Numbered from the stretch's first letter, positions 12,897 through 21,056 are shown. The stretch: 64,000 nt of DNA from a virus (IMGVR_UViG_3300025191_000001:1-64000); one strand, 5' to 3'. Made by a program: numbers and translations. The notes: a model not told the origin generated them from the sequence alone.

Positions 12897-15800
12897 ATGG
12901 CACAATTTGAGATTACAGACTTTCCTGAAATAGCTACTTTGACAGATGAAGAAAACTTTGTCTTCTATGTTAAGAGAGTTACGGATGGACAAGATTATAA
13001 GATTAAGTTAGGTAACTTTCAAGGGTTAATTCTTGATACTGTGTCTACTCAAGGTGAAGACTTTATACAACAGATAGTAGACCAACTACTCCCTGATATA
13101 GAGTCTTCTTTTGAGCAAGATTTAGAGGATCAAGTAGCGGAAGCGATGTTGTCTGGGAAAGTTCAAAAGGAAATTGAACTACGTTTTAGAGAGCTATTAG
13201 GCGAAGACTTTGAGAACCCCTACACAACTATTGTTGCTGAAGTTAACAGTGTCCTAGACAATGCCCGTACTAACAAGAAATTTGCTAAAGAGATTACTCT
13301 TGTTAACAACACTTTAGATGTTGTTAATAACGAGAAGCTCCCTGCATTACAATCTGAGTTGGATAATCTTAACAACAATATCCTTCCAGCAGTCAATGCT
13401 ACAATAGCTCAAGTTGAGGCTGACTTAGCTACTCTTAATGAGGTAGACTTACCTGAGTTAGACACCTCACTAGACGCTCTCAATGACTCTCTGACGACAT
13501 TAAATGACGTAACCTTACCTACCCTAGAGGATAGATTAGAACAGGCTGAGATCGAGTTACAGAACCTCAATGCAGTAGACTTAACAGTACTACAGAATGA
13601 ACTAGACCAAATTAATGTAGATCTAGCAACCCTGAATGATACAACACTACCTGCCATAGAAGCCTCTGTACAGTCCGTACAAGACGATTTAGACAATCTT
13701 GACCTAACTGGGTTACAGAATGATTTAGACGCAGCACAGGTCGATATAGAAGCTCTCAACAACACTATTATCCCTAATATTAATACTAGGTTAGACTCAG
13801 CAGAGAACGAGGTAGATAATCTCAATAACACTGTCATACCTAATGTTAACTCTACATTGCAAGGGGTTCAAGAGGATTTAGCTACATTAGAGTCCACTAC
13901 AGAGGAAGTTAACGAGGGGATATACATAGTACAAGATGTTAATGCCCTTATTAATAATACGATAGCAGAGATAAAGGCTGCTAAAGGTATTAATCAAGTT
14001 AACAGTTTATTCCCTATCCAATCTACCTCTATTTCTGACGATGCTATAACCACCCCCTTACTAGCAGCGAATAGTATTGTAGGTAGTAAGATTGCAGCCT
14101 TTGCCATCACAGGTGAGAAGATACAAGGTAACACTATCACAGGTGATAAACTTATAACCAATAGTATTTCTGCTAGAGAGATAGCTGCACTAAGTATCAC
14201 AGGGGAGTTGATACAGGGTAATACAATACTAGGTAACAAACTTGTAGCTAACACTATCACCTCTGACCAAATAGCTGCTGAAACTATCACTGCTGACGAG
14301 CTAGACGCTAACAGTGTTACTGCTGCTAAGATTGTCTCTGGCGCTATTACTACAGATAAGATGACAGTTAACACGATTAATGGTGACAGAATTGCCACTA
14401 ATACATTAGACGCTTCTAAGATTGTTGCTGAGAGTATATCGGCTAGGGAGATTGAAGCTCTATCTATCACAGGTGCTCTAATACAAGGTGATACAATTTC
14501 AGGAGATAAACTTATAGTTAACTCTATCTCTGGGGACAGAATCACTACTAACACTCTTAACGGTAATAAGATTATCGCAGGGACTATTAGTGCTGACAGG
14601 ATTGTTTCTAATAGTATTACCTCTGGCGAACTTGCTGCAAATAGTGTCACTGCTAGTGAGATTAAAGCAGGTAGTGTATCTACTGACAAGATGGTAGCTA
14701 ATAGTATTGACGGTGATAGGATTACTACTAATACATTAAATGGTAATAAGATTACTGCCAGAACTATCAACGCAGACAAACTTACGGCTAACACAATCAC
14801 TGGTAACGAGATTGCAGGTTTAACAATAACAGGTAATCTTATACAAGGTAATACAATCACTGGTGATAAGATTGTTGTTAATAGTGTTAATGCAGATAGG
14901 ATTGTTTCTAATACTATCACTTCTAACCAAATAGCTGCTAACACAATTGTAGGTGGTAATATCCTTGGTAACACTATCACTGGTGATAAGATTAAGGCCA
15001 ACAGTATTGATGCTGGTCTTATACAAGCAGACGCTATAGAGACAGACGCTATTAAGGCTCGTGCTATCATAGGGGAGAAATTAGCCTTTGATACTATCAC
15101 AGGGGACTTGATAGCAGGTAACACTATCACAGGGAGTAATATATTAGCAGACAGCTTAACCTCTAGGGAGATACTAGCAGGGTCTATCACAGCGAATGAG
15201 TTAAGTGCTACGGCTATAGATGGTAAAATTATCACAGGGTCTCTTCTAAGAACGTCTGGTGCTACTAACATACCTCGTGTTGTTGTAGGGGGGGATTACT
15301 TGGATGAGCAGGGTAATACAGTTACAGCAGAATTTCCCTTGTGGTATGGTACAGGTGAGGTCTCTACAGCGAATATGGTGTTTGGGTTACTCTCTGATGG
15401 AACAGCTTATGCACAGAACCTTGTTATAGAGGATAACTCTGTGTTTAAGGGGACTCTTACAGGTGCTAGTGGTACGTTTGGTACAATCACCTCTGGTAAT
15501 ATACAAGGCACTACTCTAAGTAGTAACACTATATCAGGTAATACCATTACAGGGGGTACTATATCAGGGACGACTATTACAGGTACTAATATTAATGGTA
15601 ACACTATCACAGGTGGCTCTATATCAGGTACTACTGTTACAGGGGGTTTGCTTAGAACAGCATCCTCTGGTTATAGAACAGAACTTGACGATGGTACATA
15701 CATGATATGGTCAGGTACTGGGAGTAAGACAGACGCTAATGGTATATTCTGGGTTAAGAAGAATGGTACAGGGTTTATTAAAGGTGACTTCTTTCAAGGG

Positions 15801-16202
15801 CAGATTATTGAAAGTAAGTATGACACAGGTGGTACGACTGGCAATAACATGTCAGCAAGTGTCACTCACAACTCTGCTGGCTTCCCTGTAGAGTTAAGCC
15901 CTAGTGCTAATATATATTTCGAAGTAGGTGGTAACACAGAGGTTAATGTATTGGACGTAAGTGTAACAGTGAAAAGAGGTACTACCACACTACTAAGTAG
16001 GGGCGTCCCTGTAAGAGGCATATTTTTTGTAGGGAAGACGGTGTACAACTACAGTCAAGTGTTCAACTATATAGATGATATAACTTCTACAGGTGATCGT
16101 AACTATAGTGTGCAAGTGTCTTGGACAGGCTCACCTAGTGGTACTTACTCTAATATAGATAACACTTGTTCTATGAAAACCTTCGAAAACAAAATAGCAT
16201 AA
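12897..16202 (+). CDS. Long tail fibre/spike (1101 aa) with coiled-coil stalk and 10-residue repeat region
   Basis: LxxLNxxxLP coiled-coil repeats, then dozens of ITxDKIxxNT-type decapeptides, then a beta-rich C-terminal domain. Confidence 0.75.
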   Translation: MAQFEITDFPEIATLTDEENFVFYVKRVTDGQDYKIKLGNFQGLILDTVSTQGEDFIQQIVDQLLPDIESSFEQDLEDQVAEAMLSGKVQKEIELRFRELLGEDFENPYTTIVAEVNSVLDNARTNKKFAKEITLVNNTLDVVNNEKLPALQSELDNLNNNILPAVNATIAQVEADLATLNEVDLPELDTSLDALNDSLTTLNDVTLPTLEDRLEQAEIELQNLNAVDLTVLQNELDQINVDLATLNDTTLPAIEASVQSVQDDLDNLDLTGLQNDLDAAQVDIEALNNTIIPNINTRLDSAENEVDNLNNTVIPNVNSTLQGVQEDLATLESTTEEVNEGIYIVQDVNALINNTIAEIKAAKGINQVNSLFPIQSTSISDDAITTPLLAANSIVGSKIAAFAITGEKIQGNTITGDKLITNSISAREIAALSITGELIQGNTILGNKLVANTITSDQIAAETITADELDANSVTAAKIVSGAITTDKMTVNTINGDRIATNTLDASKIVAESISAREIEALSITGALIQGDTISGDKLIVNSISGDRITTNTLNGNKIIAGTISADRIVSNSITSGELAANSVTASEIKAGSVSTDKMVANSIDGDRITTNTLNGNKITARTINADKLTANTITGNEIAGLTITGNLIQGNTITGDKIVVNSVNADRIVSNTITSNQIAANTIVGGNILGNTITGDKIKANSIDAGLIQADAIETDAIKARAIIGEKLAFDTITGDLIAGNTITGSNILADSLTSREILAGSITANELSATAIDGKIITGSLLRTSGATNIPRVVVGGDYLDEQGNTVTAEFPLWYGTGEVSTANMVFGLLSDGTAYAQNLVIEDNSVFKGTLTGASGTFGTITSGNIQGTTLSSNTISGNTITGGTISGTTITGTNINGNTITGGSISGTTVTGGLLRTASSGYRTELDDGTYMIWSGTGSKTDANGIFWVKKNGTGFIKGDFFQGQIIESKYDTGGTTGNNMSASVTHNSAGFPVELSPSANIYFEVGGNTEVNVLDVSVTVKRGTTTLLSRGVPVRGIFFVGKTVYNYSQVFNYIDDITSTGDRNYSVQVSWTGSPSGTYSNIDNTCSMKTFENKIA

Positions 16203-16212
16203 GAGACTTATT

Positions 16213-16533
16213 ATGATTAAAAAACTATTGGGGGTGTCATTGTTATCAGTAGCACTCTTGACAGGGTGCGGTAATCCAGACCCTAAAATAAAAGAAGACT
16301 TCGACTTCACTGACAAAGAACTTAAAGTGACAGTTACTACATATGACTCTTACGAAGCACTAAATGATAATGTTCGTATTCCCGCAGAGGGTTTACAAGG
16401 ACAAGCTCATTTGTCAGGGGATGTGTGTGATATAAAACTTTACAAACCAAAATCTGTCAGAGTGGATGACGAATTTACTCTTACACTAGGGCATGAACTT
16501 ATGCACTGTCTCTATGGTAACTACCATAAATAA
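16213..16533 (+). CDS. Lipoprotein with HExxH motif (possible receptor-blocking/superinfection exclusion protein)
   Basis: Lipobox LLTG-C; GHELMHC near C-terminus; adjacent to the fibre gene. Confidence 0.6.
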   Translation: MIKKLLGVSLLSVALLTGCGNPDPKIKEDFDFTDKELKVTVTTYDSYEALNDNVRIPAEGLQGQAHLSGDVCDIKLYKPKSVRVDDEFTLTLGHELMHCLYGNYHK

Positions 16534-16551: not shown

Positions 16552-17670
16552 ATGGCTGTAAATCCAGTACAATTTTTAGTTGCTTCAAATGCAAGCATAA
16601 CAGATGGGTCTAAGGTAGTCAATATCTCAGGCAATGTAGACTGTAGTAGGGTGTTCTCTGGCACAGCGGTGTTCCTTGGTGGGGCTGATAACCCTACTGA
16701 GGCTGTCTCTGGTACAAGTCCAGATGGAAATGGTAACTCTACAATCACTTTACGTAATAATTGGTCTCAAGGGGATGTAGTTAATCAGCAGATGGTTACA
16801 TTCAATACGAATGAGGGGCTTGCTGAGGCTATCTCTAATGTGAGGGAGATTGTTAGTAATGTCTCCGCTATAGAGGATTTAGCTACACAAGGTCTTATCA
16901 AAAGGATTGATGATAACACGTATGAAGTGGTGAATATCTCTACTATAGGGGAATCTCTTATTACAGCTAATGACGCTTCTAGTCAAAGGAGTGTGATAGG
17001 GTTGGGTAACGCTGCTACGAAGGATGTAGGTACTGCCGCAGGTAACGTGATGGAGGTGGGTGCTTTCGGAGTAGGGAGCGTCACCCTCTCAACTCAGTTG
17101 GATTTAGACGCTGGTGACTACATTGAAGCAGGGATGACAATAGTTTCCGCACCTGTTGCCGATTTGGTAAATGGGCCTGTTGATAGTGCAGGGTCTTCAC
17201 GTTATATTGTGAGCTTTGCTGGTAATTTAGGTACGGGCGTTCAAACAGTAACGAATAGGGTTAGCGGTAAAAGTTGGTTTCGTGTGTTTTCTAGCGGGGT
17301 CATACTAACAGACTGGCAAGAACTCTACCACAGCGGTAACACTAACTTTAATGAGTTTGGTGGGTTAGCAGTAGGAGATGAAATATCGCTAGGTGTAGCC
17401 TTATCTAGCACAGTTATACGCTTCCCTTTATATGTAAACAGCCGCGCTTCGCCAACATCAATAACAGTAGTGGGGACTTTTGAAGTCAAGAATGCGCAAA
17501 GTGTAACCGAAACATCTGGTTTAACTGCATCCGACGTTAACTTAATAGGAATATCTACCTCTCGTGTGGCTTGGGTTGATGTGGAGGACACATTAGCATC
17601 ATATACTCCGCGTGAAATGTATAGATTTAAAACCGAGTCTTCGACATCAAAAATTACGGTGAATTTCTAA
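16552..17670 (+). CDS. Second tail fibre protein
   Basis: LGNAATKDVGTAAGNVMEVGAFG motif and WQELYHSGN knob motif. Confidence 0.8.
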   Translation: MAVNPVQFLVASNASITDGSKVVNISGNVDCSRVFSGTAVFLGGADNPTEAVSGTSPDGNGNSTITLRNNWSQGDVVNQQMVTFNTNEGLAEAISNVREIVSNVSAIEDLATQGLIKRIDDNTYEVVNISTIGESLITANDASSQRSVIGLGNAATKDVGTAAGNVMEVGAFGVGSVTLSTQLDLDAGDYIEAGMTIVSAPVADLVNGPVDSAGSSRYIVSFAGNLGTGVQTVTNRVSGKSWFRVFSSGVILTDWQELYHSGNTNFNEFGGLAVGDEISLGVALSSTVIRFPLYVNSRASPTSITVVGTFEVKNAQSVTETSGLTASDVNLIGISTSRVAWVDVEDTLASYTPREMYRFKTESSTSKITVNF

Positions 17671-18254
17671 TGCTAAAATTTATAAACGAAAACGACTTTC
17701 TATTAGTCGATACATACAAAGAAAATGAAGATGGATCTGTGTCATGGGTATATGACGAAGGTGAAGGTCTTCCTACACACTCTGGTGTTATTAGAGAAGG
17801 CTTCAAAAGGTTCACTCAATATCAAGATGGCTCTGACAAGGAAATAGACGTATGGGCTAAGTTATGGGAACTCCATAACGATGAGCAAGTCTCTATCAAT
17901 GTTCTTCCTGTAGACATACAACTTCTAAAAGACAATGCTAAACAAGTGGTAAACTCTCAAAGAGATTCTCTCATTAACAGCGGAGTCTCTTTTAATGGAC
18001 ACACATTCCAAACAGATGCCACCTCTATCATGGATATGATGGGAGCAATCCTGGCAGGGATAGACACTACATGGCTCACTGCTGATAATCAACAAGTTCC
18101 TATGACTAATGCAGATATGATGGCTCTAGGAGGCGCTGTAGCTGCCTACAAGGAGAGTTTAGTCTTTAATGCTAGGGTACATAAGGATAACATTGAAAGT
18201 CTTCTTACAAAGGCTGACATTGACGATTATATAGCTACAATGTCTTGGGAGTAA
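17670..18254 (+). CDS. Tail fibre-associated protein (DUF4376-like)
   Basis: FNGHTFQTD..S, WLTADNQQVPMT motifs. Confidence 0.7.
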   Translation: MLKFINENDFLLVDTYKENEDGSVSWVYDEGEGLPTHSGVIREGFKRFTQYQDGSDKEIDVWAKLWELHNDEQVSINVLPVDIQLLKDNAKQVVNSQRDSLINSGVSFNGHTFQTDATSIMDMMGAILAGIDTTWLTADNQQVPMTNADMMALGGAVAAYKESLVFNARVHKDNIESLLTKADIDDYIATMSWE

Positions 18255-18258
18255 CTCT

Positions 18259-18669
18259 ATGAAGATTATTCTAGGAACAAGTAATAACATAGTAAGTCTA
18301 GCTATTAGACTCCACAACTTCAGCAAGTGGTCTCATTGCGGAGTTATTATTAATAACAAAGTTATCGAGGCAACGACAGGACATGGGGTAGTTGAGTCTA
18401 CCCTAGAGTCTTTTAAAGAGCGATACCCTAAATGGGAAATTATAGAAGTACCTCATAAAGGAGACTACCAAAAAAGGTTATATGACCAAGTTGGTAAATC
18501 TTATGATTGGGGTGCTATCTTTAAATTTGTATTTAGAGGAGATTGGTCTGATACAGACAAGTGGTTCTGTTATGAGTTAGCCGCTCATGCAAGTGGTGTG
18601 TTGAATAGTAAATATTTAGATAGGGTGACAGCTACTCACCTGTTAATGATAAGCGAGGAAGAAACGTAA
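18259..18669 (+). CDS. Permuted NlpC/P60 (YiiX/YebB-like) papain-like enzyme
   Basis: WSHCGV, VIEA, GKSYD, WFCYEL: His precedes the catalytic Cys. Confidence 0.8.
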   Translation: MKIILGTSNNIVSLAIRLHNFSKWSHCGVIINNKVIEATTGHGVVESTLESFKERYPKWEIIEVPHKGDYQKRLYDQVGKSYDWGAIFKFVFRGDWSDTDKWFCYELAAHASGVLNSKYLDRVTATHLLMISEEET

Positions 18670-19043
18670 TGGCATTATCCCCTGAGTTAGTCTCAGCCAT
18701 ATCAGCAGCTATTGCCACAGGGAGTGGCGTAGGTAATGCTTGGTTTTGGTATGACAAGAAGAGAGGTGATAAAACCTCCGATGACTTACATAGGAAATTT
18801 GAAGCTTTAGATAAACTAGTAGACCAACTAGCTAGGCAACAAGTAGAACATGATAATAAGTTTATTACAGAAGAACAGACTAGGAAACTCCTACAAGAAT
18901 ACTTTGCAGAGTTAAAACAATCTTGGTCAGACACTAACGCTGATGTTAAAGACATTAAGAATAGTCTTACAGAACTTACGATGCAACTACGTGTAATGAA
19001 TGCTGTCATGGACATTGAAAAAGAACTTACTAAAAGAGAGTAA
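18669..19043 (+). CDS. Membrane-anchored coiled-coil protein (holin/antiholin-like)
   Basis: One N-terminal hydrophobic segment then coiled coil; start of the lysis cassette. Confidence 0.5.
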   Translation: MALSPELVSAISAAIATGSGVGNAWFWYDKKRGDKTSDDLHRKFEALDKLVDQLARQQVEHDNKFITEEQTRKLLQEYFAELKQSWSDTNADVKDIKNSLTELTMQLRVMNAVMDIEKELTKRE

Positions 19044-19045
19044 CT

Positions 19046-19489
19046 ATGAAAGCGTTCATTATAGATGACGACCCTATCACACTCACTTTAGTAGCTTTCA
19101 TGTTAAACGAGTCGGGGATAGAGACATACTACTCCTTGTCTCCTATTGAAGAAAGCTTCTATAAAGATATTATAGAATTTAAACCAGATGTAATTGTATT
19201 GGATGTATACCTCAAAGGTGAGAGTGGTTTTGATATAGCAAGGAAACTAAGGGCAATGCCTAACTTAGACTACACTCCTATTGTTGCTATATCGGGTTCA
19301 CACACTTTATCCGATAGAGTAGAGGCATACACCACAGGATTTATCGAATACATAGAGAAGCCTTTCACTAAAGATGAAATCCTTAACGTAGTTAAGAAGT
19401 ATGGACACTCTAGTGAAATACTTAAACTCTGTAAGCGAATAGAAAATAGAGAGACATTAGACCATGAATTATATCATAAGTTTGATTAA
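19046..19489 (+). CDS. Single-domain response regulator (CheY-like receiver)
   Basis: D7-D8-D9 acidic pocket, phospho-acceptor D53 (VIVLDVYL), S83, Y102, K105-P106-F107. Confidence 0.92.
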   Translation: MKAFIIDDDPITLTLVAFMLNESGIETYYSLSPIEESFYKDIIEFKPDVIVLDVYLKGESGFDIARKLRAMPNLDYTPIVAISGSHTLSDRVEAYTTGFIEYIEKPFTKDEILNVVKKYGHSSEILKLCKRIENRETLDHELYHKFD

Positions 19490-19874
19490 GAATAGGAAAC
19501 TTGTTATAGGGATTGGTGTTACGTTGTTTATAGGGGTTGGTTCTTATTTATCTTGGAACAAGATAGAGGAGGGAATCTACAAGGAAGGTTATAACGATGC
19601 AGTACAAGAGTACCGCGTTAAACTACAACAAGCACAATCTCAATATAATAAAGACTTAGAGGGTAAACTCTTAGAACAGAGACTTATTCTCAAGCAAAGA
19701 CACGATAATGAGATTATCCGTATAAAAGAAGAATCCGTAGTAGATAAAGAGGTTCAGACAGTTACAGAATACATAGAGGAAAAGATTTATGTTAAAGAAG
19801 AGTGTGATATTGTTCCTCCTGGTCTTAACAGGATGTTCAACAACTCCATCGACTCCATTAACGGAGATAAATAA
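19464..19874 (+). CDS. i-spanin (Rz-like)
   Basis: N-terminal TM, coiled coil, C-terminal Cys; overlapped by a lipoprotein gene. Confidence 0.8.
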   Translation: MNYIISLIKNRKLVIGIGVTLFIGVGSYLSWNKIEEGIYKEGYNDAVQEYRVKLQQAQSQYNKDLEGKLLEQRLILKQRHDNEIIRIKEESVVDKEVQTVTEYIEEKIYVKEECDIVPPGLNRMFNNSIDSINGDK

Positions 19875-20079
19875 GGTAGACGAGAAGCTCCTAGAAGCCA
19901 CTGTAAGCCCATCTTTGTTAGTACCCTGTAGGGTAGCCTACCCTTTAAAGAGATATGCTGTTGATGGCTCTCTCAGAGCGTTCTATGAGGTATCTATATA
20001 CAATCTAGGGCAGGTTAATAAATGCTACAATAAAGATGAAGCTCTAATAAAGGAAGTGAAAGAAGATGAACAAGATTAG
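19789..20079 (+). CDS. o-spanin (Rz1-like lipoprotein)
   Basis: Lipobox VLTG-C; LLVPC...C pattern; overlaps i-spanin 3' end in another frame. Confidence 0.8.
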   Translation: MLKKSVILFLLVLTGCSTTPSTPLTEINKVDEKLLEATVSPSLLVPCRVAYPLKRYAVDGSLRAFYEVSIYNLGQVNKCYNKDEALIKEVKEDEQD

Positions 20080-20326
20080 GCAATTCTTTACACATGAGTC
20101 TCTTAGAGAGTTAGCCACTACATTGAATGCTTTCTGTATTATAGAGATAGTTGTTATAGGGTTCTTCTCTTGGCAAGCTTATGACTTACTACAGTGGTAT
20201 AAAGAGATCACTACCCCTGAGACATTCTCCCCTACAGCGTTCTGGGCTGCCATTAGTGGTATTGTTGCAGCGGTGTTTAGTGCATTGAAATATATAAACC
20301 ATACGTATGAGGCAAGGAAGTCATGA
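20066..20326 (+). CDS. Putative holin (2 TM)
   Basis: 86 aa, two hydrophobic helices, charged C-terminus; within the lysis cassette. Confidence 0.6.
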   Translation: MNKIRQFFTHESLRELATTLNAFCIIEIVVIGFFSWQAYDLLQWYKEITTPETFSPTAFWAAISGIVAAVFSALKYINHTYEARKS

Positions 20327-20562
20327 TAGAGATAGAAGTAGAAACTACTGTGGAAATATGGAGGACAGAGGACACTACATTCACTGTAATGTATCCTTTT
20401 CCTAATGTGGCTTACATAAAAGGGCTTAGAGGTAAGTTTACTAAAGATCTGAGGGAATCCATGAAAGTTCTTCTCAAAGAGAGGGGTATCACTCTTGTTC
20501 ATTATGAACGTAGAAGACCTGACGGAAGACACCAAATAAGAGAGATAAAAGATGACAGATAA
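20323..20562 (+). CDS. Hypothetical protein in lysis cassette
   Basis: ATGA overlap upstream, overlaps endolysin start. Confidence 0.6.
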   Translation: MIEIEVETTVEIWRTEDTTFTVMYPFPNVAYIKGLRGKFTKDLRESMKVLLKERGITLVHYERRRPDGRHQIREIKDDR

Positions 20563-20941
20563 AATTAATTGGGAAGATTACCCCAATTTCTCTGAAAAAG
20601 AGTTTCAATGTAAATATACAGGGATTTGTGATATGGACAAAGACTTTATGGAAATTCTATCAGAGATAAGAAAAGAGTATGGTAAACCTATGATAATAAC
20701 ATCAGGATATCGACATCCCACACACCCAATAGAATCTTCAAAACCCATCAGAGGGGAACATACTTATGGTGTATGCTGCGACGTGTCTGTAAGGGGTGAA
20801 GATTGCTATAATTTGATCTCTATATGTATTAAGAAAGGAATAACTCGATTAGGTGTATCTCAAAAAGGGGAAAACAGGTTTATACACATAGGAATAGGGT
20901 ACGGGGATAAGTTTCTTAACCCTTGGGTTTGGTCTTACTAA
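20552..20941 (+). CDS. Endolysin, peptidase M15A family
   Basis: NFSEKEFQC, ITSGYR, H(TYG)..D and FIHIG zinc-ligand pattern. Confidence 0.88.
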   Translation: MTDKINWEDYPNFSEKEFQCKYTGICDMDKDFMEILSEIRKEYGKPMIITSGYRHPTHPIESSKPIRGEHTYGVCCDVSVRGEDCYNLISICIKKGITRLGVSQKGENRFIHIGIGYGDKFLNPWVWSY

Positions 20942-20960: not shown

Positions 20961-21056
20961 AAGCTCCTGTAAGGCTCTCTCAGAAGAGTTCTCCTAAAAG
21001 ATGATACATTGTACAGGTTATACAAGAAAGCCCCTCAGATTGCTCTGTAGGGGCTA
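20961..21056. repeat. ~96-bp pseudo-palindromic intergenic element, copy 1
   Basis: Aligns without gaps to the reverse complement of 52692-52787 (AAGCTCCTGTAAG...TATACAAGAAARCCCCTCAGA). Confidence 0.85.

Follow-up and report, generated by a model that had tools for sequence, protein, structure and literature searches.

A stand-alone receiver domain conserved in phage lysis cassettes is a possible regulator of lysis timing

A receiver gene in the lysis cassette

The window analysed here is a stretch of 64,000 nucleotides (nt; IMGVR_UViG_3300025191_000001:1-64000) that forms part of a complete virus record of 94,038 bp with direct terminal repeats. The closest cultured relative of this marine virus is the Alteromonas myovirus vB_AmeM_PT11-V22 (V22), which is 80% identical in DNA over the region. 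The late genes described below, all on the + strand, include a lysis cassette in which the gene for a stand-alone receiver domain of 147 amino acids (aa; 19046-19489; PF00072) lies between a gene for a 124-aa membrane/helical protein, the transmembrane (TM)/coiled-coil protein or TMCC (18669-19043), and a pair of spanin genes. The TMCC stop codon (TAA, 19041-19043) is followed by two nucleotides (CT) and the receiver ATG at 19046, and the receiver 3' end shares 26 nt with the start of the i-spanin gene (19464-19874). Further downstream are genes for an o-spanin lipoprotein (19789-20079), an 86-aa protein with two hydrophobic segments (20066-20326), a 79-aa protein without assigned function (20323-20562) and an M15 endolysin (20552-20941). 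An original prediction, made from the sequence of the window, had placed the receiver 2 nt after the TM/coiled-coil gene and overlapping the i-spanin start, with an o-spanin, a second holin-like gene, the 79-aa gene and the endolysin downstream, and the coordinates of all these genes were confirmed. The receiver is a real and conserved feature, its context is without description in the literature that we found, and the function that we infer for it from sequence is a regulatory one.

Sequence, chemistry and fold of the receiver

The receiver matches PF00072 over residues 4-116 with 66.8 bits (cut-off 30.2; E 2.3e-18). Its translation contains D7, D8 and D9, D53, S83 and K105-P106 together with the aromatic switch residue Y102, which bears out the prediction of an intact, stand-alone receiver with the full catalytic set. 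From a comparison with receivers of the OmpR type, we take D7 and D8 to be the acidic pair; D9 is dispensable, being replaced by A in phage A5 and by S in contig L006 (L numbers denote related loci). The receiver family comprises 16 close database homologues (50-96% identity) as well as phage and contig copies. Across 23 family members, with identity as low as 28%, D8, D53, S83 and K105 are invariant, and D7, P106 and an aromatic residue at K-3 are nearly so. The ratio of nonsynonymous to synonymous substitution rates (dN/dS) is ~0.12-0.3 where dS is not saturated, indicating that the receiver is under purifying selection. Because of the residues invariant in 23 members and these dN/dS values, the pattern is more than chance.

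PF00072 is the sole significant Pfam domain of the protein. No Trans_reg_C winged helix was detected in the receiver, a sub-threshold B12-binding match (18.5 bits) is noise, and residue 120 is followed by a single helix. As it has neither a DNA-binding nor any other output domain, the receiver is not PhoB. The label 'DNA-binding PhoB', given to g48 of phage R8W and by one database source, is not supported, as a receiver domain alone is present; nor is the label 'hybrid sensor histidine kinase' of V22 ORF30, as the protein has 147-149 aa and no HisKA/HATPase_c core. A profile search identified no HATPase_c domain in the complete 94,038-bp genome, which extends the earlier remark that the window holds no histidine kinase to the entire virus, and this is the one receiver domain in the whole genome. 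The cognate kinase that a two-component system encodes alongside its receiver is lacking from this phage.

The AlphaFold2 (AF2) model of the receiver (predicted local distance difference test score, pLDDT, 90.8) has the standard (beta-alpha)5 fold, from which helix alpha5 runs on as a long stalk helix comprising residues 109-145. Foldseek comparisons with solved receivers gave E values of about 1e-10 and template modelling scores (TM-scores) of 0.7-0.87. The best matches to the full-length protein (147 residues, including the alpha5 extension) were WspR, PleD, NtrC1 and NtrX. Among V22-like receivers, the surface is most conserved at helix alpha1 and at the KPFT loop, which contains K105 and lies between beta5 and alpha5, and helices alpha2 and alpha4 are free to vary. 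A kinase or phosphotransferase usually docks on these two conserved elements, and their conservation here may point to a phosphodonor or partner that is likewise conserved.

Among cellular proteins, the best 80 matches to the receiver come from many different phyla and reach 26-39% identity in their best-matching segments, and the six of these loci that were inspected encode ordinary multi-domain regulators or kinases. A recent capture from a host was rejected on these grounds, with cellular identity of at most 39% and multi-domain proteins as the matches, which argues that the receiver constitutes a phage lineage.

TMCC, the membrane-tethered partner

TMCC begins with a short, acidic N-terminus and an anchor rich in Ala, Gly and Ser, which is followed by the junction motif WFWYDKKR and ~95 aa of helices. 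Residues W25, W27, Y28, D29, K30, K31, T67, E68 and R72 are invariant in the family alignment, and AF2 models the protein as helical throughout (pLDDT 79). In TMCC and its counterparts, the N-terminus is acidic or neutral and K/R residues follow the anchor. By the positive-inside rule, these flanking charges predict that the TMCC helices are cytoplasmic and thus share a compartment with the receiver. In phages R8W, R9Y2, XX1924 and PB15, the anchor of the counterpart is much stronger, and its helices are predicted to lie on this side of the membrane as well. The TMCC family is a small one of uniform members, with 81 representatives (about 95-140 aa) among 1.84 billion proteins, and a search of the bacterial genome collection, prophages included, found none. 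Prediction of a complex between the receiver and TMCC residues 26-124 gave a score of 0.01, which, obtained without controls, speaks neither for nor against binding.

The original prediction had called TMCC holin-like. With one weakly hydrophobic segment and ~95 soluble residues, it is a poor holin candidate, and its sequence features are better described as those of a releasin-like, membrane-tethered cytoplasmic helical protein; the 86-aa protein encoded downstream (20066-20326) makes the better holin candidate. A role for TMCC as a second i-spanin (phrog_2466, E 0.0045) was also rejected, as its charges predict the opposite topology and a true spanin pair is encoded downstream.

Conservation of the linkage to lysis genes

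Gene context was read from the related-loci search and from a phage collection. The order TMCC, receiver, i-spanin, o-spanin and two-TM protein is shared by the window, V22 (L001/L004), the further V22-like contigs L003, L005 and L016, the N4-like podovirus vB_AemP_PT15-A5 (A5; L002) and its near-identical relative L013, L018/L023 and L019. The V22 receiver (ORF30, following ORF29) is 68% identical to that of the window, the receiver of A5 (gp10/gp11, annotated 'CheY-like') and L013 is 42% identical, and those of L018/L023 and L019 are about 30% identical.

Comparable pairs occur in further phages. With a more distant receiver as query, XX1924, PB15, R8W, R9Y2 and H4/4 were found, of which XX1924 and PB15 are siphoviruses with a receiver labelled 'response regulator'. 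XX1924 encodes a multi-TM protein, a coiled coil with a C-terminal anchor, the receiver, a DUF5675 protein and GTA_holin_3TM. PB15 encodes a multi-TM protein, a C-terminally anchored coiled coil, the receiver and an M15-like peptidase annotated 'carboxypeptidase', followed by a protein closely related to GTA_holin_3TM of XX1924. The uncultured contigs L006 and L015 follow the XX1924 pattern, L006 with DUF5675 and GTA_holin_3TM and L015 with a 151-aa protein with three TM segments. The T7-like phage R8W encodes a class II holin (gp46), an anchored helical protein (gp47), the receiver (gp48) and a membrane protein (gp49), and R9Y2 encodes an anchored helical protein and the receiver (gp13/gp12) next to a GH108 lysozyme. 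Phage H4/4, for which the receiver gene alone was compared, has a matching gene that is annotated 'PhoB' as in R8W. In R8W, R9Y2 and XX1924, the last 4 nt of the anchored-helix gene are also the first 4 nt of the receiver gene, and the PB15 receiver is annotated 17 nt downstream of its partner gene. The cultured carriers of these receivers all infect Alteromonas, and V22, A5, R8W, PB15, XX1924 and R9Y2 were cultured with Alteromonas hosts. Linkage to lysis genes thus holds in at least seven phage lineages. A lack of conserved linkage among homologues had been named as a ground for dismissing the original prediction, and this ground falls away.

In a domain tree, the receivers fall into three clades, namely the TMCC type, those with a C-terminally anchored, XhlA-like partner, and R8W/R9Y2 (supports 0.75, 0.99 and 0.96, respectively). 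These clades are not united against bacterial receivers, and a single origin of lysis-cassette receivers is unsupported; receivers may have been recruited more than once, or the tree may be too weak to tell. At the loci L007-L011, in viral contigs, the receivers are generic and have no lysis context; these loci include a large hybrid protein and GC-rich contigs. In L010 (4826-7507, on a 94-kb viral contig), a stand-alone receiver is encoded ~580 bp 3' of a single-TM phrog_1009 protein and is followed by a P-loop kinase/GNAT-like protein, with no lysis genes seen nearby. One TMCC relative also weakly matches phrog_1009.

Spanins, holin candidate and endolysin

The i-spanin of the window (phrog_4297, Rz-like, E 3.1e-5) has an N-in signal-anchor, with K/R residues before the TM segment, followed by a coiled coil, and is syntenic in all related cassettes. 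The o-spanin gene overlaps the end of the i-spanin gene, and its product (phrog_4719, E 1e-3; phrog_2425, E 2.2e-6) has an LTGC lipobox that is kept in relatives. The two genes thus show the phrog_4297 and phrog_4719 matches, the lipobox and the overlapping frames of an Rz/Rz1-type two-component spanin. The 86-aa two-TM protein occurs in all TMCC-type cassettes with 36-99% identity and has no family match in Pfam or PHROG; from its sequence, it is the best candidate for a holin, which would be class II-like. Between the o-spanin and this candidate, three V22-like contigs contain a 244-aa open reading frame (ORF; L003 7123-7857, L005 7120-7854, L016 5500-6234), which is absent from the window and V22 and is taken to be putatively homing-endonuclease-like.

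The M15 endolysin (Peptidase_M15_3, 42.5 bits, cut-off 23.2; phrog_894 endolysin, E 2.9e-22) has no signal or signal-arrest-release (SAR) segment, and its maximum 18-residue hydropathy is 0.86. The enzyme is therefore soluble and a holin is needed. The endolysin slot varies among cassettes, with M15 enzymes in the window, L005 and L016, DUF5675 proteins in V22, L003, L018 and L023, and a 147-aa enzyme in A5 that is annotated as endolysin and has no Pfam match. DUF5675 (PF18925) was located in the slot at L001 7080-7487, L003 8315-8713, L017 3393-3788 and L018 5598-6008, and furthermore at L006 3121-3465 and L024 2438-2836. Since DUF5675 fills the endolysin slot of many sister cassettes, it is a strong candidate for a family of endolysins that is as yet uncharacterised. 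In addition, L005 (8315-8467) and L016 (6695-6847) contain a 50-aa ORF that combines the first residues of DUF5675 with an HNH-like CxxC motif and the sequence ..IREIKDDR, which also ends the 79-aa ORF of the window. The 50-aa ORF looks like a recombination scar from the replacement of DUF5675 by M15. The 79-aa protein itself has no Pfam or PHROG match, and its homologues (66-77 aa) are restricted to V22-like phages (L001, L003, L005 and L016).

Other genes of the late block

Upstream of the cassette, the densely packed late block of the window encodes a tail fibre (12897-16202), a small lipoprotein of 106 aa with an LTGC lipobox (16213-16533), a receptor-binding fibre (16552-17670), a DUF4376 fibre chaperone (17670-18254) and a 136-aa amidase-like protein of the C92/NlpC-P60-type permuted papain-like kind (18259-18669; phrog_1128, E 4.6e-19). 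The lipoprotein gene lies just 5' of the receptor-binding fibre gene, contains a HELMH zinc-peptidase-like motif and is kept in V22-like phages; its position is reminiscent of phage lipoproteins that shield the receptor once a cell is infected. The termini of the receptor-binding fibre and the N-terminus of the DUF4376 chaperone are nearly identical between the window (16552-18254), L002 (3430-5550) and L013 (2350-4550), which suggests that the fibre-chaperone-lysis block moves as a unit between unrelated phages sharing Alteromonas hosts.

The stop codon of the amidase-like gene overlaps the TMCC start (TAATG). Its product matches Pfam Peptidase_C92 with 21.1 bits, under the cut-off of 27, and the gene is found in V22-like loci and L017 but absent from A5. 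It may encode a cell-wall peptidase acting as a second hydrolase of the cassette or as a virion-associated lysin, and its membership in the cassette is uncertain. A pattern scan identified a terminator-like hairpin at 21042-21054 (+ strand), 3' of the endolysin gene and at a strand switch, which is likely to mark the end of the late operon. From the tail-fibre genes to 21042, the scan detected no other + strand terminator-like site except a match at 18384-18405 inside the amidase-like gene, which is probably due to chance.

A possible function in lysis timing

We tentatively favour, at a little less than even weight, the explanation that the receiver is a regulatory add-on of the lysis cassette and that phosphorylation of D53 shifts lysis timing via TMCC. 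The receiver would be made late and co-translated with TMCC, and a host phosphodonor, which could be a histidine kinase, a histidine phosphotransfer (Hpt) protein or acetyl-phosphate, would phosphorylate D53. The S83/Y102 switch and the alpha5 stalk would then alter how the receiver associates with the TMCC helices in the cytoplasm, or how it self-associates. As a result, the membrane step of lysis, either holin triggering or the action of the releasin-like protein, would come earlier or later, and lysis time would vary with the host's physiological state. A role in timing fits the late operon, a slot and a partner type that stay the same, a predicted compartment that the receiver and the TMCC helices share, the conservation of the docking surface and the fact that some cassettes do without the receiver. 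In the structural model, the alpha5 stalk resembles the stalks of WspR, PleD and NtrC1, which pass phosphorylation via coiled-coil rearrangement. More speculative, and in our view rather doubtful, is the wider proposal that marine phages gate lysis on host phosphorylation, with an orphan receiver switching a releasin-like protein via its alpha5 stalk and with such pairs recruited repeatedly (three clades, two anchor orientations).

Several points weigh against a timing role. The role of TMCC itself is putative, and its anchor in the window is weakly hydrophobic, with a best 18-residue Kyte-Doolittle mean of 1.28. The receiver clades are not monophyletic, so that a shared function among them is an assumption. 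As the block travels with the tail-fibre/chaperone module, co-transfer could explain part of the synteny. Finally, in L017, L021 and L022 the TMCC gene is followed by the i-spanin gene within about 12 nt and without any receiver remnant, and these three receiver-less cassettes indicate that lysis can proceed without need for the receiver. The original view of the receiver as built into the cassette therefore holds in that it is a conserved resident, but not in the sense of a core part, and its absence beside some TMCC genes suggests an optional input module. Each TMCC-type receiver has an anchored partner, and the partner can lack a receiver. The nearest relative of the L017 TMCC is found in the receiver-bearing L003 (59%) and the nearest of the L021 TMCC in the A5-like L013 (53%), and the TMCC-associated receivers form one clade in the domain tree (support 0.75). 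The simplest history consistent with these relationships would be an old TMCC-receiver pair followed by at least two later losses.

The published view of the gene as an auxiliary metabolic gene (AMG) corresponds to a different explanation, which we regard as unlikely. The receiver would be a decoy for host signalling or a phosphate sink that takes phosphoryl groups away from a two-component or phosphorelay pathway of the host, or that imitates a host regulator (of phosphate, envelope stress or chemotaxis, for instance), and its site in the lysis region would reflect a mobile module. In the V22 paper, ORF30 is a class II AMG for signalling, and neither a holin nor an endolysin is mentioned (PMC7289586); in the R8W paper, g48 is PhoB and is tied to low phosphate, and g43 and g46 are named endolysin and holin, respectively (PMC8228385). 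Neither paper mentions the partner or links the receiver to lysis (PMC7289586, PMC8228385). Besides these accounts, intact receiver chemistry in a phage without a kinase, a kinase-docking helix alpha1 that is the most conserved helix, and the loss of the receiver from some cassettes while the cassette stays would all suit a decoy. However, the protein has no DNA-binding or other output domain and is far from host-type regulators (cellular identity 35-39% at most). A decoy also has no reason to occupy one slot beside the same partner type in at least seven lineages, or to be expressed from a late operon. A phosphate sink, the alternative named in the original prediction, is less favoured because slot and partner are fixed.

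We consider it quite improbable that the receiver is a structural partner independent of phosphorylation, for instance a soluble subunit or dimerisation scaffold for TMCC, with the acidic pocket serving in folding or metal binding. Many single-domain receivers work by protein binding, the long alpha5 stalk suits coiled-coil formation and a cognate kinase is lacking, all of which would agree with a scaffold. By contrast, pseudo-receivers usually lose some of the phospho-chemistry positions, whereas the five positions and the aromatic switch are conserved here across clades, down to 28% identity.

The least probable of the alternatives is another late membrane role for the TMCC-receiver pair, such as superinfection exclusion or sensing, or a coupling of assembly or fibre maturation to the envelope, with the adjacency to the spanins being mere operon order: the pair does lie directly 3' of the receptor-binding fibre and chaperone genes in the window, V22-like loci and A5, and the function of TMCC is only putative, but in XX1924, PB15 and R8W it has membrane or lysis genes on both sides (a multi-TM protein or holin upstream; an endolysin, holin or membrane protein downstream), the R9Y2 receiver is followed by a GH108 lysozyme, although the two genes upstream encode uncharacterised soluble proteins, and receiver-less TMCC stays joined to the spanin-holin block.

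For lytic phages, lysis timing is the main life-history trait. It is thought to be set by a clock intrinsic to the holin, the classic exception, which depends on a signal, being lysis inhibition in T4. If a timing role is correct, the cassette receiver would let a phage that encodes no sensor read the energy or envelope signalling state of its host directly. The published view of these genes as AMGs for phosphate or signalling would then need correction, and the function of the releasin-like family in phages with soluble endolysins would become approachable for the first time. The survey brings to light the cassettes that lack a receiver, the likeness of the partner to releasin, the stalk formed by helix alpha5 and receiver clades that are not monophyletic.

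Comparison with known systems

V22, A5, R8W, H4/4, XX1924, PB15 and R9Y2 contain annotated homologues and share the pair of an anchored helical protein and a receiver beside lysis genes (in H4/4, the receiver only). None of the literature found ties response regulators to the lysis cassettes of phages. Like CheY, Spo0F, DivK and CpdR, the receiver of the window has a (beta-alpha)5 fold and a full acceptor set without catalytic or DNA-binding output, and DivK, PhoB-type and RR468 receivers match it with TM-scores of 0.73-0.76. Unlike these single-domain and stalk receivers, to which it is 20-27% identical, it is encoded by a phage, has no partner kinase and carries a stalk without an output domain.

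The membrane partner invites comparison with the releasin of phage Mu, gp25 (DUF2730, PF10805, phrog_736), a 99-aa protein with N-out/C-in topology, four periplasmic residues, a basic junction pair and a cytoplasmic domain, which is required to free the SAR endolysin of Mu (PMC9239132). TMCC is predicted to share the N-terminal anchor, the basic junction, the helical cytoplasmic domain and a gene position near the spanins, and an Atlas feature search with TMCC returned DUF2730. The TMCC relative in L018, which is 40% identical to that of the window, matches PF10805 over its full length with 22.1 bits (cut-off 24.9) and phrog_736 with E 2.6e-6, compared with 5e-33 for Mu gp25 itself. The TMCC of the window matches neither PF10805 nor phrog_736, PF10805 is touched by two of 78 family members, and an hhalign comparison of TMCC with the Mu gp25 subfamily gave a probability of 2.5%. 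We do not assign TMCC to the Mu gp25 family, as single-sequence and profile-profile comparisons were negative or weak. Given this marginal sequence link, the likeness between TMCC and releasin is retained as a resemblance in architecture and position. The systems also differ in that Mu has a SAR endolysin, whereas the M15 endolysin of the window is soluble and accompanied by a holin candidate; in translations that were inspected, the endolysins of sister cassettes likewise show no hydrophobic stretch at the N-terminus. Mu-type releasins are not known to have a receiver beside them.

The partners in L006, L015, XX1924 and PB15 are built like XhlA, with a coiled coil at the N-terminus and a TM segment at the C-terminus. 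The L006 partner matches phrog_937 and phrog_1193, whose label 'hemolysin' we take to mean XhlA-like. In PBSX, XhlA is a membrane protein required along with the holin (XhlB) and the endolysin (PMC5589764). The TMCC of the window differs from XhlA in being anchored at the opposite end and in having no sequence match to it, and no receiver is described in PBSX.

Conceptually, the nearest known system is lysis inhibition in T4, in which accessory proteins of the phage likewise tune holin firing to a signal. There, the holin T is governed by the antiholins RI (periplasmic) and RIII (cytoplasmic), and the signal is superinfection, which is sensed in the periplasm. The proteins of the two systems have no sequence or fold relation, and the presumed input in the cassettes described here would be a phosphoryl group on a cytoplasmic receiver.

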